DNA from: Nitrososphaerota archaeon
Lineage (GTDB): Archaea; Thermoproteota; Nitrososphaeria_A; Caldarchaeales; Calditenuaceae
Direction of reading: 5' to 3'
DNA: 32,000 nucleotides
Assembly (NCBI GenBank): GCA_041641295.1
Contig: JBEPYO010000001.1
Span: 485,262-517,261 of the forward strand
The position numbers and the translations under genes were made by a program. Every line of letters begins with the position of its first letter. The first letter of the stretch is position 1. This document shows positions 3,128 to 22,251 of the stretch, piece by piece. The notes beneath the pieces were generated by a model, which was given only the letters and a program-made list of their open reading frames with translations, did not search any database and had not been told where the DNA came from.

Positions 3128-5455
3128 TTGGATCCCCACCAGCTCCCACCTTCCCACTCAATCAAGAGGTGGCTACTGACAACAAACCATAAAGACGTCG
3201 GAATACTATACCTCGTGACTTCTCTATACTTCTTGATTGTAGGCGGTGTGTTAGCCCTACTCTTTAGGCTACAGCTAGCTGGGCCTGGACTTAACATACT
3301 TTCTCCTCCAGCTTTCAACCAAGCGGTAACTATCCATGGATTGGTCATGGTTCTCTTCGTAGTCTCCCCACTAGCATTCGCCTTGGCTAACTATATTGTT
3401 CCGCTCCAGATAGGTGCGCGGGACTTGGCGTTTCCGAGGCTCAACGCCCTGAGCTACTGGCTCTACCTCTTCGGAGGGTTGCTTGTTGTGATTTCTTTCT
3501 TCCAGGATAGGACGCTTGATGTTGGATGGACTCTATATCAGCCCTTGTCATCAGCCTTCTCGCCCTATGTCGGCGTAAATACGGGGGGTTTAGGGCTGGC
3601 GCTCCTAACGGCTTCTGTAACAGTTTCTACTGTGAATTTCGTTGTAACTATCTTCAGGTCGAGGGCTAAGGGGTTGAGGCTGACCGCTCTCCCCATGTTC
3701 ACTATAGGCATCCTACTCACCGTGTTGATGATGCTCTACGCATTCCCCGCACTACTGGCTGGAATAATTCTCCTAGCCTCCGACAGGATTCTGGGGACGG
3801 TATACTTCACCTCCCCACAGGGAGGAGCAATCCTCTGGGACCACATATTCTGGTTCTTCGGACACCCGGAGGTCTACATAGTCCTATTCCCCGCCCTGGG
3901 CGTCTTTGGAGACGTCCTAGTCACTTTTTCGAGAAGACCACTCTTCGCCCGGAGGATTATAATAGCGGCCATGGTTGTGGTTGCTACTCTGAGCTTCCTC
4001 GTCTGGGGACACCACATGTTCCTCACGGGCATGCACCCTGATGTGAGGAGGGCGTTCACGGTTACGACAATCGCGATATCCCTGCCCTTCGATGCGATAA
4101 TCCTCTCATTCATCTACACTTTGGCTAAGGCCAGGATTGAGCTTAGGACGCCCATGCTCTTCGTGCTCGGCTCAATAGCAATATTCATCATAGGCGGGAT
4201 CACCGGGGTTTTCTTGGGCTCCATCGCTCTAGACTATGTCCTGCGAGGCACGTACTTTGTCGTGGCTCACTTCCACTACACGATGGCTGGAGGTGCTTTA
4301 GTGGGGCTGATAGCGGGTGTATACTACTGGTATCCCAAGATGACTGGGAGAATGTTTAGCGAGAAGCTGGGTAGGCTCCAGTTTGTACTGACCATGATAG
4401 GATTCAACATGCTCTACTTCCCACTCTTCCTTTCATGGGAGATGCCGAGGCGCGTCCCCCTATACATCGAGAAGCTCATGCCTCTACAGCAGATCGCAAC
4501 AATCGGCGGGTTCATTTTCGCAACATCGTTCCTCGTCATGTTCTGGAACCTGCTATACAGCCTAAGATATGGAGAGCCTGCTGGCAAAAATCCATGGGGG
4601 GCTCACACGCTGGAGTGGATGACTGAGTCTCCACCACCGCCCCACAACTTCGACGGCACCCCAACCTTCGCTGATGGGAGGCTATCCTTCATAGCGGCAA
4701 ACGGCGCAGCTCACGGCGAGCCTGAGACACATCTTAGCCCCTGGCCCTTCATGCTAAGCCTTGCCTCGTTTGTAGCCCTGCTGGGTTTGACGACGCATAT
4801 TCTAATATCGGTCGCTGGTGTGGGCTTGCTTGCCTTCTCGGTCCTAGGCTTCGCTGGTGAGAGATTTGTTAGCCGTGAAGAAGCCCTCGGCGAGAGGTGG
4901 CCATTCGAGCATGTAGATAGGATGAAGCTGGCCTGGTGGACATTCATCTCTTCTGAGGTCGTGCTCTTCGGGGTTATTCTCAGCGCCTATGTCTATGTGA
5001 GAACCGCGTCAGCTACTTGGCCTGCCCCTGGGACGCTTCTTGACATAAGCCACGGAGCGATGAATACGTTCATCCTCCTCACCAGCAGCCTAACGGTAGT
5101 TTTAGCGCTGGCCTCCTCGAGGGTGGGCAACAGGGTGGGAACGGTTGGATTCCTAGCAGCCACGCTATTCCTCGGCACCCTCTTCCTATTCAACAAGTAT
5201 AATGAGTGGTCTGAGCTCTTCAGCCACGGCATAACATTCTCCAGCAGTCTACCTGCGTCAACCTTCTTCCTAACTACAGGAATCCACGGAGCACACGTCT
5301 TTGCAGGACTCCTCGCGCTAGCCTATCTCTTGGCTCGGGCGTTGAGGGGGGCCTACATTGGCAAGGGTCACGAGACTCTAGAGTACTTCGGATACTACTG
5401 GCACTTCGTCGACATAGTTTGGGTCTTTATCTTCCCGCTCTTCTATCTGGTGTGA
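3128..5455 (+). CDS. coxAC: heme-copper oxidase subunit I fused to subunit III (SoxM-type I+III)
   Basis: Subunit I motifs are FFGHPEVYIV, VWGHHMFLTG and VVAHFHYTMAGG. About 200 further aa of subunit III-like helices end in YWHFVDIVWVFIFPLFYL. The TTG start lies 1 nt after the subunit II stop. Confidence 0.9.
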   Translation: MDPHQLPPSHSIKRWLLTTNHKDVGILYLVTSLYFLIVGGVLALLFRLQLAGPGLNILSPPAFNQAVTIHGLVMVLFVVSPLAFALANYIVPLQIGARDLAFPRLNALSYWLYLFGGLLVVISFFQDRTLDVGWTLYQPLSSAFSPYVGVNTGGLGLALLTASVTVSTVNFVVTIFRSRAKGLRLTALPMFTIGILLTVLMMLYAFPALLAGIILLASDRILGTVYFTSPQGGAILWDHIFWFFGHPEVYIVLFPALGVFGDVLVTFSRRPLFARRIIIAAMVVVATLSFLVWGHHMFLTGMHPDVRRAFTVTTIAISLPFDAIILSFIYTLAKARIELRTPMLFVLGSIAIFIIGGITGVFLGSIALDYVLRGTYFVVAHFHYTMAGGALVGLIAGVYYWYPKMTGRMFSEKLGRLQFVLTMIGFNMLYFPLFLSWEMPRRVPLYIEKLMPLQQIATIGGFIFATSFLVMFWNLLYSLRYGEPAGKNPWGAHTLEWMTESPPPPHNFDGTPTFADGRLSFIAANGAAHGEPETHLSPWPFMLSLASFVALLGLTTHILISVAGVGLLAFSVLGFAGERFVSREEALGERWPFEHVDRMKLAWWTFISSEVVLFGVILSAYVYVRTASATWPAPGTLLDISHGAMNTFILLTSSLTVVLALASSRVGNRVGTVGFLAATLFLGTLFLFNKYNEWSELFSHGITFSSSLPASTFFLTTGIHGAHVFAGLLALAYLLARALRGAYIGKGHETLEYFGYYWHFVDIVWVFIFPLFYLV

Positions 5456-5761: not shown

Positions 5762-5854
5762 ATGAGGAGCGCCTATCTTGTGGCGGTCTTCGCGGGTCTG
5801 GCCGGGCTGGTGCTTGTAGTTCTGCTGCTCTGGAGGCTGGTCGGAGGCCTATAG
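5762..5854 (+). CDS. 30-codon single-TM micro-ORF (MRSAYLVAVFAGLAGLVLVVLLLWRLVGGL)
   Basis: Found by hand; it is below the ORF-track cutoff. The ATG is preceded by GAGGGTGGTG. The product is one hydrophobic helix directly downstream of the oxidase genes on the same strand. Its 3' end overlaps the polB stop convergently. Confidence 0.35.
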   Translation: MRSAYLVAVFAGLAGLVLVVLLLWRLVGGL

Positions 5855-7915
5855 CCACCTCTCAAGCCTAGCGTCTTTCGCTGGATGGTTTATCGAGGCT
5901 CCTATGGCCTCGAAGACCGTCTCCGCCGCCCTCCTGAGATAGGCCCTGTAGTACTCCTTGTCGTATCTCCCCCTGAAGAGCTGTGTGGCCCTAACCCTGA
6001 GGAGGGGGTTTGGATGGCTCTGCGAGGTGATTATGAATCCGACCTCCATCCCCTTCTCAAGCCTTATCCCGAGGGCTTGGAGCTGGGTGGCTGCGGACGA
6101 TTGGGCGAGGCCGCGGCTATACTCTCTTGGGTCTTTTCCCAGCGTCTTCCTTATCTCAAGCTCCTCGACACCTAATCCGCCGTCGATGAGCCCTTCATAC
6201 TCTTCCAGCAGCTTGACGCCCTCCTCAACACCGCGAGTAAGGACCTCTCCGACACTGTCGAAGGACATGAGGGTTCTGATGAGCCGCTCCTGAAACTCCT
6301 TCACTATGGCCGGCGTGTCACTCCTTCTAAGCTCTATACCCCGCGCCTCAACCACCCCTTCGTAGGTTAGGCCGAAATACCTCTTTAGGGCCGGCGTGTC
6401 AGGGTCTGTCCTTAGGCGTGGGAAGGCTATGAACTTGAAGTGCCGGTCGAGGGACATGGGGAGCCCCGTTGCCGCCGATATCTCCTCTGCAAGCCTCTCG
6501 TAGTCCCTCCTCGACGCCCCATTCCTATGGACGAAGAGGGAGTCCACGTCGCCGTAGACTATCTCGAAGCCGTTCTCCTCGGCAACCCACTTGCTTATGA
6601 GCATCGCCTCCCTCGAGACCCTGTTTATCTCCTCGAATGCGAGGGTGTTTCCGAACCTGTTCCAGCAGCAGCCGCTTATCCCATACTGGGTGCAGAGTAT
6701 CAGCTTGAGGGCCTCTATCCTCTCCGTGCAGTAGAGCTCCTCGTCGCTTAGTGGTGGTAGGGTTTTCCTGAGCCTCTTGAGCCTGAGCCGCCTCTCAAGC
6801 CACGGCCGCAGGATTGAGGGTATGAGCCTCCCACTGCCCGAGGGGCTCTCATAGCTTATCCTATGCTTCAGTATGATGCTGGGGTATTGGGAGTCGAAGT
6901 CTAGGGCTGCCACGTTCTCGTGGAGGCCTGGCTTGGGCGTGAATGTCACACCGCCCCGGTCGCGCTCCAAGAGCTCAACCAGACATCTCACCTCCTCCAT
7001 ATACTCGAGCCTCGGCGCGTGGATGCCCATCCTCGCGAGCTCGTAGAGGTTTCGCGAATCAATACACCTGTTGCTGGTCCACCTAGTCGCTAGGCCTAGT
7101 GTCGTGAAGGAGAAGCGGGCCCTCTCAACAAGACCCGCGAGACCATACTCGTCAGGCTCGAAGCCGTAGAAGACATCTCCCAAAAAGACCCTGCCAGCAG
7201 CCGAGCCCTGAGAGAGCCTCCAAGCATCAAGACACCTCCCAACAGCCCTACGGACCTCGGGGCTCGCCAGCCACTCCATAAACGGTCCACAAGAACCACG
7301 ATGAAGGCCGGGAACATAGATTAGATCTGGGTCAAGGCTGGCGATCAGCCTCACCAGCTCTTCCAAGACCCTGTCCTCAGAGCCTTCAACCCACCAGGAG
7401 CTCCTGGCACGCTGTATATGCAGGCCAGCCAACCTCGCACCCGAGTATCTCGGCAAAATCTTTAGGAGTGAGAATGGGGGTGGTCTGATCTCGTCCAAGT
7501 CCTCTAGGCGTTCGGCGGAGACTATCCTGTCCCCCGAGACCGTGAAGACTGCGCGGCTGGATGGCTCGATCTGTAGGCGGTTGAATAGGTATCTCTGGAC
7601 GTGGGGGAGGTCGTCGCCGTATGTCTCCACCGCTAGACCACTACGCTTGACTAGCCTTGAGACGCGGCCGATGCTCCTCGCGCAGAAGGACTCTATCCTC
7701 ACCAGACACCTCCGCTCTGTATTCCTCAGGCCTACAAGCCCCTCGACAACCTTGACACTTCTGACAAGGGGTGACTGCTCGAGGAGCTGGACCAGCTCCC
7801 TCAGAGCCTCGACACTCCGCGGCTCAGCGAGGATGTGTGGGCGATACTCGTCGACCAGTCTCAGAGCCTCTCCGCTAGGCGTCTTAACCCACACAACCGC
7901 CTCGTCGTCTAGCAC
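5849..7915 (-). CDS. polB: family-B DNA polymerase, PolB2-like, exonuclease motifs lost (true 5' end probably upstream of 7915)
   Basis: Polymerase motifs are LDFDSQYPSII (motif A), KLILCTQYG (motif B, degenerate), VYGDVDSLF (motif C) and LKRYFG (KKRY-like). At the Exo I position it reads LLKILPRYS in place of FDIE. At Exo II it reads DPDLIYVPGLHRGSCGPFMEWL in place of YNGDSFDFPYL. Confidence 0.85.
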   Translation of the reverse strand: MLDDEAVVWVKTPSGEALRLVDEYRPHILAEPRSVEALRELVQLLEQSPLVRSVKVVEGLVGLRNTERRCLVRIESFCARSIGRVSRLVKRSGLAVETYGDDLPHVQRYLFNRLQIEPSSRAVFTVSGDRIVSAERLEDLDEIRPPPFSLLKILPRYSGARLAGLHIQRARSSWWVEGSEDRVLEELVRLIASLDPDLIYVPGLHRGSCGPFMEWLASPEVRRAVGRCLDAWRLSQGSAAGRVFLGDVFYGFEPDEYGLAGLVERARFSFTTLGLATRWTSNRCIDSRNLYELARMGIHAPRLEYMEEVRCLVELLERDRGGVTFTPKPGLHENVAALDFDSQYPSIILKHRISYESPSGSGRLIPSILRPWLERRLRLKRLRKTLPPLSDEELYCTERIEALKLILCTQYGISGCCWNRFGNTLAFEEINRVSREAMLISKWVAEENGFEIVYGDVDSLFVHRNGASRRDYERLAEEISAATGLPMSLDRHFKFIAFPRLRTDPDTPALKRYFGLTYEGVVEARGIELRRSDTPAIVKEFQERLIRTLMSFDSVGEVLTRGVEEGVKLLEEYEGLIDGGLGVEELEIRKTLGKDPREYSRGLAQSSAATQLQALGIRLEKGMEVGFIITSQSHPNPLLRVRATQLFRGRYDKEYYRAYLRRAAETVFEAIGASINHPAKDARLERWL

Positions 7916-7947
7916 GTATACGTCGAGGATCCAGCCCTCTATACTCC

Positions 7948-8250
7948 TCAGCCGCCAGACCCCCTCCCCATCTCCCTGAGCCTGGCCTCTATCTCCGCGA
8001 TCCTCTTCTTCAGCTCCTCTATCTCGGCCTTGTTATGTATGTTGGCCGCCAGGTTCATCGAGTCTAGGATGGTTATCTCACCCAAGCCGCCCATCGCAGC
8101 GTGCTCCTGGCCCCAGACCTCCCTGATCAGCGTGTCCAAGGCCCTCCTATGCCTCTCCTCCCTTAGAAGCGGTCTATAGGTCCGCCTAAGCCGCTCCACA
8201 ACCTGCCTGTAGAGCTGTCTGAAGGGAGGGGTAATCCTACCCAAGCCCAC
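7948..8250 (-). CDS. 100-aa Arg-rich protein with C-terminal coiled coil, unknown function
   Basis: The ORF overlaps the upstream gene by 14 nt and ends 32 nt before the polB GTG. The C-terminus KAEIEELKKRIAEIEARLREM shows a heptad-like pattern. I recognise no family. Confidence 0.5.
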   Translation of the reverse strand: MGLGRITPPFRQLYRQVVERLRRTYRPLLREERHRRALDTLIREVWGQEHAAMGGLGEITILDSMNLAANIHNKAEIEELKKRIAEIEARLREMGRGSGG

Positions 8251-8947
8251 CAGCCAGGGGGAGGATCCGAGGGAGACCAGCCGCGGAGCAGGCAGCGAAG
8301 CGTGCTTGACGAGCCTGGCGACTAGGCCCGAGCCCCTCAGGGCGAAAAAACACTATCACTGCAGCCCTATGAATGATCTGGGCCGGGAGCTTGGGCGTGG
8401 CGCGGGCCGGGTCTGGTGAGTCTTCTATGGAGGGGGCTGTGACCACCAGCGGTGCAGAGGCCCTAGAGGCGGCCTCCATGAGGATTGAGACCGACTTGAC
8501 GAGGGCGGATGAGGCCTCGCCGCCCTCCCTATCCAGGAAGGCTGGGGCGTTGTGCATGGCTATGAGCGCCACCCTCCCCCTCTTTCCGATATCCTCTGAG
8601 AGCTCCTCAGCCGCGCAGACCTGCCGCCTAGCGTTGAAGGCCGCGGCGCAGCGTATTGCTGACAGGACCTTGAGGGGCTCTACACCCGCCATCTTCGAGA
8701 CTGTCGAGAGGGATGTGGCGTCGATGAGTGTCTTCTCGCCATAGTAGTCAGTGTTGTTCAGATACGCCACCCACCCGTGCCTCGAGGCCTCAACCATCAG
8801 CCTGTAGAGCACGAGGTCGGTGACCACCCGGTCCCCGTAGAAGATGTGCAGGGCTCCGGGCCTAAGCCCACCTATCAGAGCGTCAAGCCGCTCCAAGCCG
8901 GTTGGTACTGGGCGGCGGAGAAGCATCAGCTCGGAGGCCCGTTTCAT
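8237..8947 (-). CDS. RadA/RecA-fold paralog with degenerate Walker A and B motifs
   Basis: VPTGLERLDALIGGLRPGALHIFYGDRVVTDL aligns to RadA ITTGCSSLDNLLMGGVETQAVTELVGEYGCGKTQ, but GxxGxGKT is replaced by GDRVVTD. The Walker B position reads VALIAMHN with no Asp. GGAGG lies upstream of the ATG at 8947. Confidence 0.6.
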   Translation of the reverse strand: MKRASELMLLRRPVPTGLERLDALIGGLRPGALHIFYGDRVVTDLVLYRLMVEASRHGWVAYLNNTDYYGEKTLIDATSLSTVSKMAGVEPLKVLSAIRCAAAFNARRQVCAAEELSEDIGKRGRVALIAMHNAPAFLDREGGEASSALVKSVSILMEAASRASAPLVVTAPSIEDSPDPARATPKLPAQIIHRAAVIVFFRPEGLGPSRQARQARFAACSAAGLPRILPLAGGLG

Positions 8948-8997
8948 CAAGACTCATCAACGCCTCCGGGGGGAGACCACCCTCCCGGCCCACGCAG

Positions 8998-10017
8998 CTA
9001 CCGCTTTGACTCCGCGTCCTCTATGCCCTTCTCCGAGATCCTAAAGCGCGCCTCCAGGTCAGACGGGTGGTAGGGGCTGTCCATTATCCTGGCTATCCTC
9101 GTATCATCTGGCCCCCTCCTCAGGAATACTCTATACGTCGTGCTGTGGGCTAGGACGTGGCCGCCGCTGGGCTTTGTGGGGTTCCCATAGAAGGCTCCGG
9201 GGTCTCCGACGACCTGGTTAGTAACTACTACTGCAACATTCCTAATCTCCGCCAGCCTGAGCAGGCGGTGGAGCGTCGCGTTAAGCTTCTGCTGCCTCTC
9301 CGACAGATTCTCCCTACCCACATAGTCTGCCCTGAAGTGTGAGATGATCGAGTCTACGACAACGAGCCTAGCCTTGTACTTCTCCAAGTGCCTCCCAAGC
9401 TCCCTCACGACGAGCTGGAGGTGGCTCGAGTTATACACCTCCGACACCACAACACCTTCTAAGACCTTGTCAGGATTCAGGCCGCGGGCCTTGGCTATCT
9501 CGTAAATCCTCTCAGGCCTAAACGTCGACTCGGTGTCGATGTATATCGCTCCTGCGGAGAGGCCGCCCTTCTCCCGCGGCAGCTGGACAGTGACGCAGAG
9601 GGTGTGGCATATCTGGGTCTTCCCACACCCATACTCGCCTACCAGCTCAGTCACCGCCTGAGTCTCCACACCACCCATCAGCAGGTTGTCAAGAGACGAG
9701 CAGCCGGTAGTTATCCGCTCCAGGCTCTTCCTACGCTCCAAGACCTCCTTCCCAGTCATCAGCTCGGAGTCCAAGAATCCGCTGCTGACCAGTAGGACCC
9801 TGGCCTGGAGGCAGAGCTCCTCGGCCTTCTTCGCATCAATCCCAGCCTCAACAAGCTCGCGGGGAGAGGCCGCGGCTAGGTCTAGCAGGCTATATATCCC
9901 AATGGAGGTTAGCTTCTCTTTAGTAGCCTCACCCACGCCCCTCAGGTCTGCTAGGCTGTAGATGTCCACCTCCTCGCCGTCCTCGCGGGCCTCACCCCTC
10001 TTGGCTGCGGGGCTCAT
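8998..10017 (-). CDS. radA: DNA repair and recombination protein RadA
   Basis: It has an N-terminal HhH (LADLRGVGEATKEKLTSIGIYSLLDLA), Walker A GEYGCGKTQ and Walker B ARLVVVDS, with a RadA-typical C-terminus. A TATA-like CTTAATCTATAT lies about 30 nt upstream. Confidence 0.95.
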   Translation of the reverse strand: MSPAAKRGEAREDGEEVDIYSLADLRGVGEATKEKLTSIGIYSLLDLAAASPRELVEAGIDAKKAEELCLQARVLLVSSGFLDSELMTGKEVLERRKSLERITTGCSSLDNLLMGGVETQAVTELVGEYGCGKTQICHTLCVTVQLPREKGGLSAGAIYIDTESTFRPERIYEIAKARGLNPDKVLEGVVVSEVYNSSHLQLVVRELGRHLEKYKARLVVVDSIISHFRADYVGRENLSERQQKLNATLHRLLRLAEIRNVAVVVTNQVVGDPGAFYGNPTKPSGGHVLAHSTTYRVFLRRGPDDTRIARIMDSPYHPSDLEARFRISEKGIEDAESKR

Positions 10018-10099
10018 GGCCAGAATCGGGGACCCGGCATAGATATAGATTAAGACCCCTCGGCGAAAGTAACGAATGAAAAGTAAAGGGACGGCGGGG

Positions 10100-10534: not shown

Positions 10535-10827
10535 CTGGCCTCGCCCAGTAGTGAAGAGTTTCCAAGATCGATTATCGCAACGGCTGATGCTCCGAACGGC
10601 TTACCGAGCGCTTGGCCTATCTCTCTCGCGGTCAGGTCAGAGTAGATTATAGGGATCGCCGAGATCTTAGCTGCGAGTTCCATCTTCTGCCTCACGCTCT
10701 CCGGGCAGTTACTGGCTAGGACTATAGCCTTAGCCGACTTCCTCACCACGCTCAGATAGCTCTGCCTAAACCCGAGCAGGTATTTCCCAGTGAGCCTGAT
10801 AACTCCGAGCTCCTTCCTCACGTCCAT
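10531..10827 (-). CDS. rpl30e: 50S ribosomal protein L30e
   Basis: KSAKAIVLASNCPESVRQKMELAAKISAIPIIYSDLTAREIGQALGKPF is an L30e/L7Ae-fold signature. The ATG overlaps the rpoA stop (TAATG). Confidence 0.9.
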   Translation of the reverse strand: MDVRKELGVIRLTGKYLLGFRQSYLSVVRKSAKAIVLASNCPESVRQKMELAAKISAIPIIYSDLTAREIGQALGKPFGASAVAIIDLGNSSLLGEAS

Positions 10828-13800
10828 TACTTCCCACCCGCATCGGAGCCCGACCCGCTATTCTGGTTCGGCAGGAGGTCGCTATACCTCATCAGGAGGC
10901 TCACCCTGCCAGTACCGACAGGAACCTCCCTGCCTATTAAGATTCTCTCAATGTTCCCCTGCAGATGATCAACCTCGCCAGATGCAGCCGCCTCAACCAG
11001 CGTCTGGAAGCTAATCTCGAAGGCCGCCCTCGCAAGGACGCTCGACTTCAGCCTCACAACACCGTGCCTCCCAACCTGTCTAACCCTCCCATCTAATGTC
11101 ATGGCGTCTGCCAATAGTAGCAGGTGTCTGACGTCGACGTCGAGGCCCTGCTCCCTCAAGAGCTGTTGAGCCTCCTCGACTATTAGCTGCCTCGCCGCCT
11201 CAATGCCGAGGACTGAGGCCACCTCGTGAATGTCGTTCGTCCTAACCCTTCTGAAATCAACCTCAGGTATGGACATGACCTCCTTGAGGTTTGAGCCCTC
11301 TGTCTGTATGAGGTATTCACCACCCTTCTTCCGGACGACAGCCTTTGTTATCTTCTTCACACCTCTCAGCCTCGTGTTAAGTATCCTAGTTTTCAGAAGT
11401 TCTAGAGAGTCTTGTTCAACCTCCTTAACTGTCAGGGAGACAGCCCGTTTAGACTCGATGAACTTGGGCTTGTAGGGCTTCAAGGCCTGGCTTAACTCCT
11501 CCCGCGTCACGTTTAGTTCCTTCAAGGCCTCTTCATCGAGCATGAGTATTATGTTGCCGGTCCTCGCCTCTATCCTAATCTCGTCTACAACATCGCCGAC
11601 GCTTATGTATTGGAGCCTGCTGGCAATCTTCCTAGCTAGCTTCGGATCCTGGTTGTAGGGTGGTTTAAGATATATGTACATCATGGGCGTGGAGGGTGCC
11701 CTTCTTGCATCGATTATCTCGATAAGCCTAGGTAGTCCTACGAGGATGCTCTGCTCCCTAACACCAGCGAAGTGGAATGTCCTGAGCGTGAGCTGTGTCC
11801 CAGGCTCGCCAAGGGACTGGGCTGCGATGATTCCGACAGGGTCTCCAGCCTCAACCATGCTTTGGAGATAGACCCGGTACGCCGTTGCGAAGACCCTCTC
11901 TATAGCGTCCTTCGGGACCTTAAGTTTGAGACAGGCGTCCGATAACTCCTGGATAGCCAGGGGTGGCATCAACCCCTCATACTTCTTGGCTACAGCCTCG
12001 ACATCCTCTTTTGCGGCTGGGCTGCCTTCGCCCTGCTGCTCCATTAGGACTTGCGATATGATGTTGGCGGGGATAAACGGCTTTCCGTGGTCGCTCTTAC
12101 CAGGGTCGACGCCGTCCTCGCCGTATAGGAATTGAACGATTTTCTTGGTGTCTGACATTCTGACTGAGCCGTCAAACTCTACGTAGAGTGATTCGAGGGC
12201 GTTTATGAGCCTACGCTGCATGTAGCCGCTCTGCTGCGTCCGGACCGCAGTGTCGACCAGCCCATCCCTTCCGCCCATCAGGTGGAAGAAGAACTCTATC
12301 GGGTCGAGGCCCTTGATGAATGGGTTGTATACGAAGCCTCTGGCGCGTGGAGATAGGTCGCCCCTCTCGAAGAACGTTAAGACTCTGTCCGTAAATCCTC
12401 TGCTAGGCCTCTCCCTCCTAACCGCCTGCTGACCAACTATGGCAATCATCTGGTCAATGTTCAGGGTGCTCCCCCTCGCTCCGGTCCTAGCCATGATGAC
12501 GAGTGGGTTGTCTATGGAGACATACTTCCTCACGAAGCTGCCAATCTCGTCCCTAGTCCTGGAGAGGAGTTCAAGTATTTCGGACTCAAACGCTTTCTCG
12601 GGAGTCTCACCGGGCTTAACTTCCAGTCTCCCCTTCTCATAGTCGGACTTTAGCTGCTGGAACTCCTTCTCCATCTTGTGGAGGTAGGATTGGACCTGCT
12701 TGTACACTTCCTCGGGTACCGTTAGATTCTCTATGCCGAATGTGAAGCCTCGGAGGTTTATGTACGTGTTGGCGAGCCTAATGACTCCGTTGAGGAATCT
12801 TGCAGCCTCCTCGTAGCCGTATTCCCTGAATATTCTGTGCAGAACGCTGTTAGCCTTCTCTACACCCACTATAGCCTTATCAATGAATCCTTGGACTAGC
12901 TTCCCCTTCTCTATTACGACCTGAGTATCTGAGCTGAAGTTGGACTGGACCCTGTGAGACAGGGTGGGTGGCAGGAGTAGGCTGAACACCTGCTTGCCGC
13001 TCCAAAGAGGCTGAGGATCTGTCTTCTCAGGTGGAGGCAGCTCGCCCTTGTACCCTATCGCGGAGAGGAGGTAACCAAGCGTCTGCTTATCCACATATGT
13101 GCCGTCTTTTGTCAACAGGTAGAGCGAGGTCAAGAAGTCTCTTATTGCACCTATAATCGGTGCGCCATATCTGGCGGAGATTATGTTTCGCTGGACCTGT
13201 AGTAGGAGCCTTGCCTCGGCCTGAGCCTCCTCACTCTGCGGGACGTGGAGGTTCATCTCGTCGCCGTCGAAGTCGGCGTTATAGGGTGTGCAGACTGCTA
13301 GGTTGAGTCTGAAGGTCTTATAGGGTAGGACTTTGACGCGGTGAGCCATGATGGAGACTCGGTGTAGGCTTGGCTGCCTGTTGAATAGTACAATGTCCCC
13401 GTCCCTTAGATGCCTCTCGACGATCCAGCCCTCCTCGAGGCTCTCAGCAACCTCGTCCAAGTTCTGAACATTCTTCAGACGAATCATCTTCCGGTCAGGC
13501 TTGATCACGTATTTTGCTCCCGGGTACTTGTCAGGCCCGTTCCTCACCATCTCCTTCAGCTTCTCCTTATTCCAGGGAGTGACGATCTCCGGTACGGTGA
13601 GCTGCATAGCTATCTCGAGTGGGACGCCCACCTCGTCGAAGTCTATGAGGGGATCGGGTGAGATGACTGTGCGCGCGGAGAAGTCGACACGTTTCCCGGA
13701 GAGGTTAAGCCTGAAGCGGCCCTCCTTACCCTTAAGCCTCTGGGCGAGCGTCTTCAATATCCTGCCCGACCTGTGCTGGGCCGGTGAGATACCTATCGTC

Positions 13801-14633
13801 TCGTTGTTGATGTAGGTTGTTACGTGGTATTGTAGTAGGTCTGAGAGCTCTGCTATGACTGGCGAGGGTGCGGCCGCTGCTATGCTCTCCTTCAGCCTCT
13901 GATTTACCCTCAGTATGTCGACCAGCTTGTGGGTTAGGTCGTCCTCAGAGCGGTAGTTGCTCTCAAGGGTTATTGAGGGCCTTACATAGACAGGGGGGAC
14001 GGGGAGTACTGTTAGAACCATCCACTCCGGCCTTGAAGACTGTGGGTCGATGTCGAGGAGCTCCAGGTCTGAGTCCGGTATTCTCTCGAGCCGCTGTCTC
14101 ACTGAGCCTGCTGTAAGCCTGACAGCCCCCTGTGGGGTGGATTCTACGAAGGTTGAGGGCTTCTCCAGCTCTATCTTAAACTGCTTCTCGCCGCAGTGTG
14201 GGCAGGTTTGGGTGGCCATTGCCTTTTGCTTAACCTTGTAGAAGAGGTGTCTGTACATTCTCCCCTCCTGCTTCAGCTGCCGCAGCCTCGCCCTGGTCTC
14301 CTCGATCTCGTTCTGGCTTAGCAGCAGCCTTCCACAAGACCTGCACGTACACCTAAGCAGTTCATGAATAATCTTGACGAATCCTATGTGTATGACGGGG
14401 ACTGCAAGCTCTATATGCCCAAAGTGTCCCGGACACGAGATGTATGTGTTTCCGCAGGTCTTGCACCTCTGCCCCGGCTCAAGAGTGCCTAGCATCGGGT
14501 CCATGACACCTGTCGGTATCGGCATCCCGTCCTCGTCGTAGGTGTCTGGACTCTGAACCTCGACGACACTCATACTCCTGATTAGGTTTGGCGGAAGTAT
14601 ACCGAACTTAATTGCTGAGATTATCCCCCTCAA
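10827..14633 (-). CDS. rpoA: DNA-directed RNA polymerase largest subunit, A' and A'' portions in one continuous frame
   Basis: A' motifs are IKFGILPPNLIRSMSV, the zinc site CKTCGNTYISCPGHFGHIEL and the catalytic YNADFDGDEMNLHVPQS. A'' motifs are AAQSLGEPGTQLTLRTFHFAGV and GIEAARQLI. There is no stop between them. The likely TTG start at 14633 lies 8 nt after GGAGGTG and overlaps the rpoB stop. The ORF-track extension to 14807 lies inside rpoB. Confidence 0.9.
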   Translation of the reverse strand: MRGIISAIKFGILPPNLIRSMSVVEVQSPDTYDEDGMPIPTGVMDPMLGTLEPGQRCKTCGNTYISCPGHFGHIELAVPVIHIGFVKIIHELLRCTCRSCGRLLLSQNEIEETRARLRQLKQEGRMYRHLFYKVKQKAMATQTCPHCGEKQFKIELEKPSTFVESTPQGAVRLTAGSVRQRLERIPDSDLELLDIDPQSSRPEWMVLTVLPVPPVYVRPSITLESNYRSEDDLTHKLVDILRVNQRLKESIAAAAPSPVIAELSDLLQYHVTTYINNETIGISPAQHRSGRILKTLAQRLKGKEGRFRLNLSGKRVDFSARTVISPDPLIDFDEVGVPLEIAMQLTVPEIVTPWNKEKLKEMVRNGPDKYPGAKYVIKPDRKMIRLKNVQNLDEVAESLEEGWIVERHLRDGDIVLFNRQPSLHRVSIMAHRVKVLPYKTFRLNLAVCTPYNADFDGDEMNLHVPQSEEAQAEARLLLQVQRNIISARYGAPIIGAIRDFLTSLYLLTKDGTYVDKQTLGYLLSAIGYKGELPPPEKTDPQPLWSGKQVFSLLLPPTLSHRVQSNFSSDTQVVIEKGKLVQGFIDKAIVGVEKANSVLHRIFREYGYEEAARFLNGVIRLANTYINLRGFTFGIENLTVPEEVYKQVQSYLHKMEKEFQQLKSDYEKGRLEVKPGETPEKAFESEILELLSRTRDEIGSFVRKYVSIDNPLVIMARTGARGSTLNIDQMIAIVGQQAVRRERPSRGFTDRVLTFFERGDLSPRARGFVYNPFIKGLDPIEFFFHLMGGRDGLVDTAVRTQQSGYMQRRLINALESLYVEFDGSVRMSDTKKIVQFLYGEDGVDPGKSDHGKPFIPANIISQVLMEQQGEGSPAAKEDVEAVAKKYEGLMPPLAIQELSDACLKLKVPKDAIERVFATAYRVYLQSMVEAGDPVGIIAAQSLGEPGTQLTLRTFHFAGVREQSILVGLPRLIEIIDARRAPSTPMMYIYLKPPYNQDPKLARKIASRLQYISVGDVVDEIRIEARTGNIILMLDEEALKELNVTREELSQALKPYKPKFIESKRAVSLTVKEVEQDSLELLKTRILNTRLRGVKKITKAVVRKKGGEYLIQTEGSNLKEVMSIPEVDFRRVRTNDIHEVASVLGIEAARQLIVEEAQQLLREQGLDVDVRHLLLLADAMTLDGRVRQVGRHGVVRLKSSVLARAAFEISFQTLVEAAASGEVDHLQGNIERILIGREVPVGTGRVSLLMRYSDLLPNQNSGSGSDAGGK

Positions 14634-17600
14634 CTCCCACCCACCTCCTCGAAGATGAGCTTTGGATAGATACACATGGCTAGAAGCTCGTTCAGTAGGA
14701 GGAAGAATGCATACGACATCGAGACTTGGACTCCTGAGAAGTCTTTGCCATGTACGGGGCAGATTAGCTGGTTCTGCTTGAGGTCGTAGTATGCCGGTAG
14801 CCCGCACTTCTCGCAGAAGTATGCAGAATACTTGTCGCTCTGCTCGAGTAGCCGGTCGAGGAGTAGGTAGCTTGCCCCGTAGGCGATTAGGCAGTCCCTC
14901 TCCATCTCCCCGAACTTGAGGCCTCCACCGCGGGAGCGGCCCTCGGTAGGCTGCCTCGTCAGTATCTGAACCTGGCCCCTAGACCTCGCGTGTATCTTGT
15001 CCCGGACCAAGTGGTGTAGCCTCTGATAATACACAACGCCAACGAATATCTCAACCTCGTACTTTCTGCCTGTAAGGCCGTCATACATGACCTCCGTTCC
15101 AGTGCCCTTAAAGCCGAGAGCCTCTAGCTCCGCCTTTATCTCCTCGAGGGGCTTGCCTATGAAGGGTGAGCCGTCGATCTCCTCGCCCTTCAGCCCGGCG
15201 AGTTTCCCGGCGAGGCTCTCAATCAGCTGTCCGACAGTCATTCTGGAGGGGAATGCGTGTGGATTAATTATCAGGTCTGGGACGATCCCGCTGGCAGTGT
15301 AGGGCATGTCCGCCTGTGGGAAGAGCATGCCTACAACGCCCTTCTGACCATGCCTCGAGGCGAATTTGTCCCCAATCTCTGCAAAGCAGTCGGTTCTGAT
15401 CCTGGCTTTGACTAGGGTTGTCTCTTCGAGCGTCTTAGTAACAAAGATCGTATCCACCACACCCGCCTCTGTAGGCTTAACGACCTCAGACGAGTCTCTC
15501 CAGACCATCTCCCTGGCAGGGGCCCTCATGTACTCTTCCATGAACCGTGGAGGGCTAACCATTCCGACGATAGCCATTCCTCCCACAACCTCCGACTCGG
15601 GGAAGGCAAGCCCGTCGGTGTCTAATGCGCGGTAGCATTGCTCGCCCCTGTAGCCCCTCACACTCGGCTCGGGAATGCCCAGCCTATCCTTCTCACCGCC
15701 TATGTACTGCTTTGCCTCCACCTCGTAGGTCCTATAGCTGATGCTGTAGCCCACGCCGCGCTCAACGGAGGATTTGTTTAGGACTACGGCGTCCTCCATG
15801 TTGTATCCATATCCTGTCAAGACAGCCACGACCAAGTTCTGGCCGATTGGCCTCTCTGTGAGTGAGAGCCGCTTCGTGAAGCGCGTAGATACTAGGGGCT
15901 TCTGGGGATAGACCAGTAGGTGGAGCCTAGAGTCAGTCCTCAGGTTTAGGCTTGTTAGGGGAACTCCCAGCGCCTGCTTAGCCATTGAGGCTTCGTAGAC
16001 GTTTCTCGGCGACTGGTTATGGTTACTGTAGGGTATTATTGAGGCTACAGCGCCCATCGTGAGGAGCGGCGAAATTTCTAGATAGTTGTGGTTGGGGGTC
16101 AGGCTTTCTGGAGAGAGGGCGACCAAGACGTTTTCCTCCTCAGAAGCGTCTAAGAACTCTACAGCACCTATCGAAACCAGATCCCTAAACCTGAAAGTCC
16201 CATTGGACAGCGATTCAATCATCGCCCTCGAGATGCTAGGCACACCATTCTCCGCCACTATTAGCGGCCTCCTGACCCGGCCCTCGTCGGTGTAAATCTC
16301 AACTTCCTGGATGTGTGGATACTCGTTTAGGCAGATATTGACGGCGGGGCTAATCTCACCCTTCCTACGTAAGGCTCTAAGCTCGCGGACCAGAGCACGG
16401 CCGTCCGGATGATAGCCTATCAGCTCGTTGTCCAAGTAGACTTTTGCACCATACGTCTTCTTCCGCCCACGCCTCCTCTCGTCAAGCGCCACAAAGACGC
16501 CGACCATACCGAGGTCTACCAGCCTTCTCTTCAGCTCAATCCTGTCCTGCTGCGAGAGTGGGACTGTGACCTCGGCACCTAAGGCTAGGTTTTTGACGAG
16601 CCCGGAGTTCGCTCCTTCTGGCGTCTCAACGGGACATATTCTACCCCAGTGTGTCCCGTGTAGGTCTCTTGCCTCGAAGTGTGCTTGGCTACGGCTAAGC
16701 GGCGACTGCACCCTCCTCAGATGGCTGATAGTGGCTAGATAGTTAGTCCTGTTCAACAGCTGTGTTACGCCAACACGCCCACCGGGCCAGTTCCCAGTCG
16801 CAAATGCGTGAATAACGACGTCGTTAACTATGCTGGGCTTAACAAACGGTGAGATTGTGATTGGATAGCGCGACGCCATGCTCTTTTCGAGCTGATACTT
16901 GATGTCTCGGATCAGCTTGGTGAGAGCCATTCGGTAGAGTTCTGTCAGGAGTGGGTTCTCCAGCTTCAGCCTCTTGTTACCGTAGTGGTCTTTGTCCGAG
17001 GGCTTTCTGAGACCCACGCTCGTCTCGAGTAGCTTCCCAACTATGTCGCATAGGAGTATTCCCTTCTTGTATCTCGCGTCGGGGGTCGTCCCTACATGGA
17101 GCATGAATATGTTGTCTATCATCTGCTCAGCCCGCTGTTTCCTGTACTCCTCGGCATAGCCGAAGGCTATCCTGTTCCCTATGTACACTAGGGCGTCATC
17201 CGCCGTCTCAACGCCCTCGGCCTCCCTGAATGACGGCTCGAGAAGCTCCTGTATCGCGGAGTTGTTCGATATGAGATTGACTATCTCGCTGTCCTTAGTC
17301 AGACCAAGAGCCCTCAGCATGACTATCAGTGGAATACCCTTGTAGATCCTCGAGAAGAAGACCTTTATGGGGCCACCCGGCTTGTAGGTGACCTCAACCT
17401 TACTCATCCTACCCTGAGAGGAGGAGAGAAGCATCGCAGAGTACTGTGGATTCTCCTTCTGATCCTTCACAGTCACGAGAACCTTGTTGGGTGAGAGATC
17501 CTCTATCGCCACTATAACCCTCTCTGACCCGTTTATGATGAAGTAGCCGCCTGGGTCTAGCGGGTCTTCACCTATAGCCGCGAGCTCTTCTGGGGTCATC

Positions 17601-20928: not shown

Positions 20929-22251
20929 GTGTCTTTGCTCAGGGATAGGTATGATAAGGCTGTCGAGGCTTCTGGCAGCATTCTATGCCTTGGACTCGAC
21001 CCGCCGCCGTGGGCCTACCCGGAGCCTAGTTTGAGGCTGAAGTTCTGTCTCGACAAGATCCAGCAGCTCGGCAGGTTTTGCTCCGCTGTTAAGCTGAATG
21101 AGAATCATGTGCGCGGCCTGGGGGAAGACGGGCACAGAGCTATAACCGGGTTGGCGAAGAAGCTGAACCTTTTAGCGATTCTGGACTGTAAGCTCGGAGA
21201 CATCGGCGAATCTGCTAAGGCTGGTGTAAACACCATCGCGAGGTTAGGCTATGACGCCTTTACCCTCAACCCCCTCTTCGGCAATGTCAGAGAAGTGGTA
21301 GAAGAGGCGCATAGGCAGGGGCTAGGCGTGTTCCTTCTCGCCCACCCATCAAGCAGATACGGCGAGAAATACTTCCGTCGCGTGGTGAATGGTGAGCCGC
21401 TCTACTGGAGGTTTATTGAGGAGGGGGTTGAGGCTGGGGTGGACGGATACGTAGTCGGGCTTTCACCTAGCCTCGGTGAGGAGGAGATAGCCGAGATTAG
21501 GAGGAGGATAGGAGAGGAGGCGATAATACTCTCACCCGGATTAGGCGCACAGGGAGGAGACCCAACGCCCATGATCAGGGCCGGCGGTGAGAGGATACTC
21601 ATCAATGTGGGCCGGTCGATAATACTTGCAGAGGACCCGGCCGTCGAAGCGGCAGGCATCGCTGAAACCCTCTCGAGCCGTAGGGAATTCATCCTCACCA
21701 GTAAGGCAATAATTGGGACGAAAGGAGTCTTGAACATATATGAGAAGCCGGTCCAGCTCTCGAGCGGCGGGTGGAGCCGTCTCTACATCGACTGTAGGGC
21801 GCTATACTCCGACCCAGTTTCGAGGTCGCTCATAGCAAGACTCATGACTGGGGCTATATCCAGACGCGTCGGCAGGTCCGGCTTCGAGATAGCGACCACA
21901 GCTACTGCAGGAATACCATTGGCGAGCATTGTGGCAGACAGGCTTGGCGTGGGACTTGTATACGTCAGGATGGAGAAGAAGGCGCACGGGCTTGAGCGGA
22001 AGGTGGAGGGAGTGGTTAAGCCTGGGATGCTCTATGTAGGCGTTGACGACGTGGCCACCACTGGTAAGAGCGCGCTTGAGTGTGTGAAGGCAGTGCGGGA
22101 GGAGGGGGGAGTGATAAACAAATACTTTGTGATCTTTGATAGGGATGAGGGCGCCGAACAGCTCCTCCGCGAGGCTGGAGTTGAACTCTACTCTCTCGCC
22201 CGTATGAGTAGCGAGTTCCTGACCATGGCAGGTGTTAGCGATAAGCCCTAA
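20929..22251 (+). CDS. pyrF-pyrE: fused orotidine-5'-phosphate decarboxylase (N-terminal) and orotate phosphoribosyltransferase (C-terminal)
   Basis: The N-terminal ~255 aa carry LCLGLDPP, AVKLNE, LDCKLGDIG (DxKxxD) and SPGLGAQGG. The C-terminal ~185 aa carry the PRPP-binding loop MLYVGVDDVATTGKSA and an OPRT-like hood region. Confidence 0.85.
   Translation: MSLLRDRYDKAVEASGSILCLGLDPPPWAYPEPSLRLKFCLDKIQQLGRFCSAVKLNENHVRGLGEDGHRAITGLAKKLNLLAILDCKLGDIGESAKAGVNTIARLGYDAFTLNPLFGNVREVVEEAHRQGLGVFLLAHPSSRYGEKYFRRVVNGEPLYWRFIEEGVEAGVDGYVVGLSPSLGEEEIAEIRRRIGEEAIILSPGLGAQGGDPTPMIRAGGERILINVGRSIILAEDPAVEAAGIAETLSSRREFILTSKAIIGTKGVLNIYEKPVQLSSGGWSRLYIDCRALYSDPVSRSLIARLMTGAISRRVGRSGFEIATTATAGIPLASIVADRLGVGLVYVRMEKKAHGLERKVEGVVKPGMLYVGVDDVATTGKSALECVKAVREEGGVINKYFVIFDRDEGAEQLLREAGVELYSLARMSSEFLTMAGVSDKP

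Follow-up and report, generated by a model that had tools for sequence, protein, structure and literature searches.

What do the two small open reading frames (ORFs) encode that lie between radA and a family B DNA polymerase gene in an archaeal genome, and how do they relate to the genes on either side? We address this for a 32,000-nucleotide (nt) stretch of a Nitrososphaerota archaeon (GCA_041641295.1, contig JBEPYO010000001.1, positions 485,262 to 517,261), referred to below as the window; homologs of its proteins are found in Candidatus Calditenuaceae and Nitrososphaerota metagenome-assembled genomes, and the host is an aigarchaeote. An earlier reading of the same DNA (the sequence-only reading) had seen four same-strand genes with a 50-nt gap, a 14-nt overlap and a 32-nt gap between them. 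Four ORFs do lie on the minus strand: radA (10017-8998, 339 amino acids, aa), a frame of 236 or 237 aa (8947/8950-8237), a frame of 100 aa (8250-7948) and a polymerase frame of 688 aa when counted mechanically from GTG 7915 (7915-5849). The spacings are right as mechanical counts, but the gene boundaries behind them are wrong, and the two small ORFs are best read as two frames of one gene. We consider it likely that the locus consists of a canonical radA followed by the known PolB2 mutasome operon, encoding an inactivated RadA homolog (iRadA), a small protein (PPB2, arCOG07300) and the polymerase PolB2, with iRadA and PPB2 joined by +1 recoding.

The relation between the two small ORFs is apparent from their relatives. 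The homologs P0011 and P0012 (331 aa) are colinear with the two ORFs in series, the 236-aa ORF first and the 100-aa ORF second, and besides these two about 30 loci encode a single iRadA-PPB2 protein of ~330-380 aa. Reading the window upstream from the 100-aa ORF in its own frame yields CFFALRGSGLVARLVKHASLPAPR, which matches VFLSLRGSFATARLVKHSSMPAPR of the fused relatives; the upstream ORF (frame 0) follows the RecA-like core of iRadA to residue ~201 and then continues as an off-frame tail of 35 codons. Similarly, a tblastn search with P0011 breaks into two frames at residues ~196-202 in L004-L006 and L009. The break coincides with the candidate shift site GTG TTT TTT CGC (8342..8353, minus strand, with the T6 run at 8350-8345), and removal of one T there restores a single ORF of 332 aa, the conceptual recoded product of an iRadA-PPB2 fusion gene spanning 7948..8947 on the minus strand. 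Against a fused-family hidden Markov model (HMM), this recoded product scores 363 bits from end to end (positions 8-331), the frame-0 ORF 190 bits and PPB2 alone 147 bits. The iRadA-PPB2 gene of this Aigarchaeota (Calditenuaceae-like) clade carries one extra T, which places its halves in frames 0 and +1, and gene callers annotate two genes in every assembly of the split clade.

The site itself is conserved. Eleven nucleotides, GTGTTTTTTCG, are invariant in nine independently assembled Aigarchaeota loci (the window, L004-L009, L044 and L045) while the flanks vary and iRadA identity among these loci falls to ~54%. Within the window, the site is the only run of at least six T on the sense strand and the only TTT-TTT among 12 Phe-Phe codon pairs, TTT being the minor Phe codon (65 versus 226 occurrences). 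The frame-0 codon that follows the run is CGC, but CGA in L044; both are used less than AGG, the arginine codon that the genome prefers (6.7, 2.1 and 43.9 per 1000 codons, respectively).

Selection changes frame at the same place. The segment read in frame +1, ALRGSGLVARLVKHASLPAPRLVSLGSSPWLVG (8245..8343, minus strand), corresponds to the last two beta-strands of the iRadA core and aligns to strands E204-212 and E219-223 in the AlphaFold2 model of P0011. Amino-acid identity across lineages is 74% for this segment in frame +1, versus 46% for the poorly conserved frame-0 tail. Pairwise differences at the three codon positions number 120/92/196 upstream of the site in frame 0 and 68/71/206 downstream in frame +1, with a third-position peak in each. 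In frame 0, the ratio of nonsynonymous to synonymous change (pN/pS) is 0.61 upstream and rises to 1.43 downstream, whereas in frame +1 it falls from 1.11 to 0.35; the downstream values come from 22 ungapped codons in nine phylogenetically related sequences. Purifying selection moves from frame 0 to frame +1 exactly at the shift site. The +1 segment also keeps the family motif A-x-L-V-K-H-x-x-x-P, common to relatives that are only 30-40% identical. Entry to the +1 frame is limited to ~12 nt in five loci by stop codons just before the T6 run (TGA TAG in the window and L004-L006, TAG alone in L009), while in L007, L008 and L045 the frame is open further upstream; in the window, it contains no ATG, GTG or TTG before 8250. 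Taken together, the frame switch of selection, the conserved site and the fused relatives point to +1 recoding, and make the site a candidate programmed frameshift.

The first half of the gene encodes a RadA/Rad51-fold protein with dead Walker motifs, as the sequence-only reading had proposed for the 236-aa ORF. Pfam and NCBIfam searches with the 236-aa and 100-aa ORFs on their own gave nothing usable, and the families had to be aligned first. A profile built from 19 fused homologs matches Sulfolobus solfataricus RadA (2bke) with E=1.4e-21 over RadA residues 70-292, and in this alignment other residues stand in place of the Walker A GSGKT and of the Walker B Asp; the match covers the RadA/Rad51 core without the N-terminal HhH domain. 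Pfam Rad51 is matched by 13 of the 19 fused homologs. The AlphaFold2 model of the fused relative P0011 has a mean predicted local distance difference test score of 77 (above 85 in the core), and its top Foldseek matches are RAD51/RadA filaments (RAD51, E=3.9e-15). The iRadA part is 29% identical (E=3e-15) to the published iRadA MBN1784958 of a Candidatus Bathyarchaeum operon. Near its N-terminus (window 8947-8930; alignment columns ~19-22) lies a hydrophobic-x-x-Ala motif, [F/I/M/L]xxA, which is FVRA or FERA in the clade and MKRA in the window, and which the HMM aligns to the RadA polymerisation motif FKTA; in the published description, iRadA lacks the oligomerisation N-terminal domain.

The second half, the PPB2 module (7948..8244, minus strand, 98 aa), begins as MGRITPPFRQ at TTG 8244, with an N-terminal MGR[T/I] arm, three helices (seen in the P0011 model) and a C-terminal coiled coil. 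It matches the published PPB2 of Candidatus Bathyarchaeum (MBN1784957) over its full length in hhalign (probability 98.9%, E=1.7e-17, 86 columns), while with S. islandicus PPB2 the N-terminal arm alone aligns. Seven of the nine loci of the split clade have TTG, ATG or GTG, all start-type codons, at the position of the PPB2 Met; L006 and L044 are the two in which it was not read. In the window, a Shine-Dalgarno (SD)-like GGTGG precedes TTG 8244 by 3-7 nt, and the frame-0 stop TAG 8239-8237 sits inside the Gly-Arg codons of MGR. The 14-nt overlap is a by-product of frame-0 read-on, the N-terminus of PPB2 being placed at TTG 8244 and not at GTG 8250. Two further observations concern this family. 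The precomputed annotation PF26485 (DUF8156) is present on PPB2 or fused proteins of close relatives, including those of L044 and L045, and a Pfam-A search of the window PPB2 gave no PF26485 match, the family perhaps missing from that copy of the database or the match falling below the filters. A second PPB2 copy lies between the fused gene and PolB2 in L030 (9580-9861), L033 (9539-9820) and L038 (9610-9891); the fused copy there has a degenerate MTGRN arm, which fits the published PPB2a/PPB2b duplication.

The polymerase is homologous to published PolB2, with a predicted intact polymerase site and a predicted dead exonuclease, in line with what had been read from the sequence earlier. Pfam PF00136 is matched with 2.5e-20, and motifs A (DFDSQYPS, 6901-6878), B (KLILCTQYG, 6706-6680) and C (YGDVDS, 6556-6539) are present on the minus strand; the Exo I sequence AFDIEV aligns to LLKILP and Exo II NSNGFD to VPGLHRGS, so that the acidic residues are lost. 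Among published members, it matches the PolB2 of Candidatus Culexmicrobium (MCS7385766, DVD type, operon 1a; 30% identity over 426 columns, BLASTP E=6e-49), matches to IVD-type members being weaker. The nearest solved structures are of PolB3 type (5mdn, 2.5e-67, followed by those from Thermococcales; Dpo1 is weaker at 4e-40), in keeping with the closeness of basal PolB2 to PolB3 stated in the published work. According to the model in print, PolB2 docks on iRadA through a beta-alpha motif, followed by a D(K/R) motif that contacts PPB2 (PMC11791011). The polymerases here carry a near-invariant [DE]x[YW]G[LIV]AG[LM]VE followed by IDSR, a putative counterpart of the S. islandicus residues. The C-terminal ARLERWL-COOH (5852..5872, minus strand) resembles the published PolB2 clamp motif PRRLEEFL and may be a PCNA-binding (PIP-like) motif; its counterpart is RLE[RT]W[LI] in the closest relatives, RLDDWL in P0022 and P0023, and TLEGWL or SLVQWM in others. 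As a separate matter, an insertion or intein (PF14890) sits in the polymerase domain of some PolB2 homologs (P0053, P0081, P0082 and L040); the tblastn match in L040 (11239-11768) stops at residue 407 and resumes at residue 410 after ~530 nt.

The start of PolB2 is unusual as well. The frame runs on upstream of GTG 7915 through a conserved N-terminal stretch, EGWILDVYV, so that the 32-nt gap before the polymerase is probably coding, and in the window ATG, GTG and TTG are all absent from this region. In non-Aigarchaeota loci with a recognisable GW, an ATG, TTG or GTG lies mostly five (in a few cases four or two) codons before it. Of ten Aigarchaeota-type sequences, nine lack a canonical start and carry CTG at the five-codon position; the CTG of the window (7951-7949) overlaps the PPB2 stop as CTGA. 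Thus, PolB2 probably starts at CTG 7951-7949 and spans 5849..7951 on the minus strand. Because the polymerase frame is open upstream without a start codon, a PPB2-PolB2 fusion by -1 frameshifting had also been considered; it was rejected, as the frame of PolB2 relative to that of PPB2 is -1 in the window but +1 in L001, and L006 has only six open codons before GW.

The sequence-only reading knew of no such operon described for archaeal PolB2/Dpo2. The operon of the three downstream genes is in fact known: an inactivated RadA homolog and the small alpha-helical arCOG07300 protein were described together with PolB2/Dpo2 as a predicted operon in 2013-2014 (Makarova and Koonin, 2013; Makarova et al., 2014, PMC4104785), and the partners were renamed iRadA and PPB2 and modeled with the polymerase as a PolB2:iRadA:PPB2x3 heteropentamer in 2025 (Timinskas, Timinskas and Venclovas, 2025, PMC11791011). 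The latter study also reports iRadA-PPB2 fusions and the retention of DxD in basal TACK PolB2, and explicitly compares the complex with the Pol V mutasome. The locus probably represents this basal TACK form, with the polymerase DxD intact, the exonuclease dead and iRadA fused to PPB2. The earlier observation of a tight unit of recombinase, ATPase-dead RecA-fold paralog, small helical protein and exonuclease-dead, polymerase-competent PolB2 holds, and it was largely correct apart from the gene boundaries; its mutasome-like interpretation was right in kind and already published.

Conservation of the neighbourhood, which had been set beforehand as a check on that interpretation, was assessed in 40 loci from species-representative genomes, found by a PolB alignment scan, with neighbours identified by tblastn and ORF extraction. 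The arrangement is kept across several archaeal phyla: a fused iRadA-PPB2 lies directly upstream of PolB2 in ~36 of the 40 informative loci, within 1.3-6 kb in three, and is absent in one, which is far from chance. The fused gene, of ~330-380 aa, is upstream of PolB2 in Methanomethylicia, Nitrososphaeria, Bathyarchaeia, Brockarchaeota and Geothermarchaeota. In the exceptional locus L034 (Bathyarchaeota bin796 chromosome) neither iRadA-PPB2 nor radA was found within 10 kb on either side, and this PolB2-family homolog (36% identity) may be a solo polymerase.

The gene at the head of the locus is a full-length canonical RadA recombinase, as had been proposed: the protein matches Pfam Rad51 (2.9e-85), has the N-terminal HhH domain (HHH_5), scores above the cutoffs of the NCBIfam equivalogs NF003301 (397.5 bits, cutoff 259) and TIGR02236 (376.6 bits, cutoff 361.15), and has intact Walker A (GEYGCGKTQ, residue 127) and Walker B (LVVVDS, residue 218) motifs. 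Canonical radA lies 0-370 nt upstream of iRadA in ~22 distinct loci, comprising all Aigarchaeota with upstream DNA as well as Nitrososphaeria, Bathyarchaeia, Brockarchaeota and Geothermarchaeota; it was not found within 3-10 kb in Methanomethylicia and several other loci, and is not among the enriched PolB2 neighbours in either published survey (PMC4104785; PMC11791011). The lineages with adjacent radA include those with the most RadA-like iRadA, for example those keeping an LPxxKGG insertion. Since the adjacency is found where iRadA is most RadA-like, it is most simply read as a relic of the tandem duplication of radA that gave rise to iRadA.

Promoters were sought by a simple scan for AT-richness, as the sigma-70 promoter/terminator scanner is inapplicable to archaea. 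Between 5700 and 10200, radA alone has an AT-rich box close to its start codon, CTTAATCTATATCTA at 10053-10040, 22-36 nt upstream of the ATG, and the radA-iRadA spacer is GC-rich and has no AT-rich box, so that the earlier claim of a single TATA-like element stands. This element is part of a conserved promoter block (10040..10070, minus strand) composed of an ACTTTC box (10070-10065), GCCGAGGGGTC and the TATA-like TTAATCTATATCTA (10053-10040). A block of ~31 nt, (T)CACTTTC-N-CCGAGGGGTCTTAAGCTATTTTTA, is near-identical upstream of radA in all Aigarchaeota loci with upstream DNA (the window, L001, L002, L005, L007-L010, L044 and L045), and is kept even where the gene upstream of radA differs (NusA or PfkB). 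From these features, radA is probably co-transcribed with iRadA-PPB2-PolB2 from one conserved promoter. The damage-response element of Sulfolobales Orc1-2 is ANTTTC (PMC6061795); ACTTTC matches it, a resemblance that may serve as a lead toward damage response. As an observation on other lineages, the radA promoters of Nitrososphaeria, Brockarchaeota and Geothermarchaeota (L026-L033, L037, L038) have in common a C-rich box, CCCC(C)CTCCCC(TC), ~40-70 nt before the radA start and ~15-25 nt upstream of a TATA-like AATAAATA or ATATTAAC, which may be a lineage-wide radA regulatory element.

How could this arrangement be expressed? With the low-usage arginine codon CGN waiting to be read in the A site, some ribosomes would shift by +1 at GUG-UUU-UUU-CGC as the P-site tRNA-Phe moves from UUU to UUC; an RNA polymerase that drops one U would yield the same protein. 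The slip of the P-site tRNA-Phe at a slow CGN codon appears the most likely route, with loss of a U during transcription as the alternative. Slippage would yield the 332-aa iRadA-PPB2, its RecA-like core complete. Non-slipping ribosomes would read 35 junk codons and, the frame-0 stop lying inside the MGR codons, terminate at TAG 8239-8237 on top of the PPB2 start; reinitiation at TTG 8244 (MGRIT) would then make free PPB2 of 98 aa. In this way, the frequency of the shift could help set the published stoichiometry of one iRadA to three PPB2. PolB2 translation would be coupled to that of PPB2 through the CTG overlapping the PPB2 stop. By analogy with the published model, the proteins would assemble as PolB2, iRadA and a PPB2 trimer, and the complex might perform damage-tolerant, proofreading-free extension, probably on PCNA. 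That GUG-UUU-UUU-CGN is a programmed +1 signal that sets the ratio of fusion to free PPB2 together with TAG-TTG reinitiation, for a translesion polymerase complex that in these basal lineages may also be linked physically to co-transcribed RadA through the FxxA-like N-terminus of iRadA, is a reading that we regard as possible, though somewhat less likely than not.

Other explanations of the split gene make different predictions. If a fixed frameshift had simply led to gene fission, the cell would make a 236-aa iRadA with a junk tail and a separate PPB2, and the +1 segment would go untranslated; the two-gene annotation in every assembly, the start-type codon and SD-like GGTGG of PPB2, and the proposal in print that free PPB2 is made from inside fusion genes (PMC11791011) all suit this explanation. 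An untranslated segment should drift neutrally, yet this one has the low pN/pS and high identity in frame +1 described above, keeps the family motif and encodes two core beta-strands in the model, and the 11-nt site is invariant despite the disfavoured TTT; we hold fission without recoding to be quite unlikely. Transcriptional recoding, in which RNA polymerase slips on the six-A template and omits one U in a fraction of the transcripts, has in its favour that the site is a homopolymer, that VFFALRG results by either route and that no ribosomal stimulatory structure was found. Six residues are, however, fewer than the runs of ~8-9 or more usually needed for efficiency, and the invariant C-G with the CGN codon (CGC, CGA in L044), expected for a hungry-codon ribosomal shift, would be superfluous for slippage. 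Although slippage is an established route for such frame corrections (PMC5009743), it appears unlikely here. A sequencing or assembly error in a gene that is really in frame might be suspected, given that the break sits in a T6 run. The same T6 occurs in nine independent assemblies from different projects and assemblers with diverged flanks, and a metagenome scan for the slip-site pattern with T5 or T6 allowed gave 17 matches, 15 of them chance and two from the lineages of L007 and L008, with T6 alone among the true homologs, no in-frame T5 variant and no new lineage; we attach next to no weight to an error. Phase variation of the homopolymer was likewise rejected, all nine assemblies having T6.

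A further alternative concerns the function of the complex: in the sequence-only reading, the unit would be a recombination-coupled system in which the two small proteins recruit PolB2 to RadA filaments or tether it there, to extend D-loops or carry out damage-tolerant synthesis, and radA would be a functional member of the operon. The position of radA in ~22 loci of five lineages would agree with this, and the iRadA hydrophobic-x-x-Ala, aligned to FKTA, might bind a RadA protomer in the manner of BRC repeats. On the other hand, the AlphaFold-Multimer model of S. islandicus PolB2 with active RadA scored only 0.28, and its authors consider the binding specific to iRadA (PMC11791011). Moreover, radA is missing nearby in Methanomethylicia and several loci and is not a reported neighbour in the wider PolB2 survey, and where it is adjacent, iRadA is most RadA-like, as a tandem-duplication relic predicts. 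We regard tethering to RadA filaments as improbable; the radA adjacency, the hydrophobic-x-x-Ala motif and the ACTTTC promoter block nevertheless keep a functional link to RadA possible, as leads.

Several points weigh against programmed +1 recoding and the details built around it. Runs of six T also serve archaea as pause or termination signals, CTG is an unusual start codon there, and L044 has a GTG two codons before GW that is a possible alternative start for PolB2. CGC is only moderately rare. No conserved RNA structure was detected downstream of the site (RNAalifold gave a weak fold, with a penalising covariation term of +0.82 and one compensatory pair), and the downstream selection test is short and its sequences related, as given above. 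The recoding and (re)initiation steps are predictions from sequence, and co-transcription with radA is read only from the absence of a recognisable promoter before iRadA. Furthermore, no cellular gene of an archaeon is known to undergo programmed +1 frameshifting, the -1 shift in fucA1 being the only programmed frameshift shown in such genes (PMC8211752).

With the operon itself already known, PolB2 being the main damage-induced mutagenic polymerase of Sulfolobales and its iRadA and PPB2 partners already modelled, what is new here is the +1 frame change, the radA adjacency and the PolB2 CTG start. Within the locus, it is the conserved +1 frame change that is of most interest and that lends itself most directly to testing. 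If true, it would be a testable +1 recoding candidate in archaea, where fucA1 (-1) is the sole demonstrated cellular case, and the first phylogenetically conserved +1 signal in a cellular archaeal gene; the recoding would sit where one iRadA to three PPB2 must be set, offering a testable expression mechanism for the published model. The presence of radA beside the basal, most RadA-like forms would support a tandem-duplication origin of iRadA and keep the link to recombination open. In practical terms, gene callers get all three downstream genes of this clade wrong: iRadA is truncated, PPB2 is called as a gene of its own and PolB2 is cut short at the N-terminus.

Around the locus, rpoB, an unsplit rpoA, L30e and a NusA-like KH protein lie upstream of radA on the same strand, and a cytochrome oxidase cluster lies downstream of PolB2 on the opposite strand. 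The rpoA gene (10827-14807, minus strand) is one ORF of 1326 aa with Rpb1 domains 1-5; its ortholog in L044 (1-4148) is 1725 aa long and carries an intein. Two gene fusions are also found in the window, COX1 with COX3 in one 775-aa ORF (3128-5455, plus strand), and OMP decarboxylase with a phosphoribosyltransferase domain (pyrF-pyrE-like) in one 440-aa ORF (20929-22251, plus strand).

When compared with known systems, the locus shares most with the published PolB2 mutasome operon (Makarova and Koonin, 2013; PMC4104785; PMC11791011), including the three co-oriented families in order 1a (iRadA-PPB2-PolB2), the iRadA-PPB2 fusion, the MGR[T/I] arm of PPB2, the dead exonuclease, the DxD of basal TACK and the PIP-like C-terminus of PolB2. 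It differs in three features, none of which PMC4104785 or PMC11791011 mentions: a conserved +1 frame change divides the fusion gene, PolB2 has no canonical start codon, and canonical radA, with its conserved promoter, comes immediately upstream. S. islandicus Dpo2 is more distant, with IID instead of DxD and the gene order PPB2-PolB2-iRadA. Like E. coli Pol V (UmuD'2C-RecA-ATP) and ImuA-ImuB-DnaE2, the locus combines an error-tolerant polymerase with a RecA-family subunit and a small accessory protein with an arm near the active site. The polymerases of those systems belong to family Y or C and are not homologous to the family B enzyme here, and the RecA subunit of Pol V is an active recombinase, whereas the RecA-family subunit here is a dedicated ATPase-dead paralog; the likeness appears architectural, and is not family membership. 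Rad51 paralog complexes and the FxxA docking of BRC repeats offer a parallel for a degenerate Rad51-family protein acting as an adaptor, with FxxA-type motifs at the N-terminus of iRadA and on PolB2 (EYGLAGLVE, perhaps the counterpart of the published beta-alpha motif). Eukaryotic Rad51 paralogs mostly keep their nucleotide-binding sites, unlike iRadA, and the iRadA-RadA contact is putative.

For the frame change, the closest comparisons are the +1 frameshifts of bacterial prfB (CUU-UGA-C) and yeast Ty1 (CUU-AGG-C) and the archaeal -1 frameshift of S. solfataricus fucA1 at A-AAA-AAT (PMC1616953; PMC8211752). As in these programmed frameshifts, two overlapping ORFs correspond to one protein that is uninterrupted in relatives, with a conserved shift-prone site between them; as in the +1 cases, the P-site tRNA could re-pair (UUU to UUC) and a low-usage frame-0 codon comes next. 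In contrast to these cases, the frameshift of the window is a predicted one, is of +1 direction, and has a sense codon of moderate rarity in the frame-0 A site, with no stimulatory structure or upstream SD-like element evident. Bacterial dnaX (tau/gamma) is alike in that recoding in an accessory gene of a replication or repair polymerase leads to two products in a set ratio, as may be the case here. In dnaX, the shift is -1 (or transcriptional, at A9) and the shifted product is the shorter one, whereas in the window the shifted product would be the longer iRadA-PPB2 fusion.

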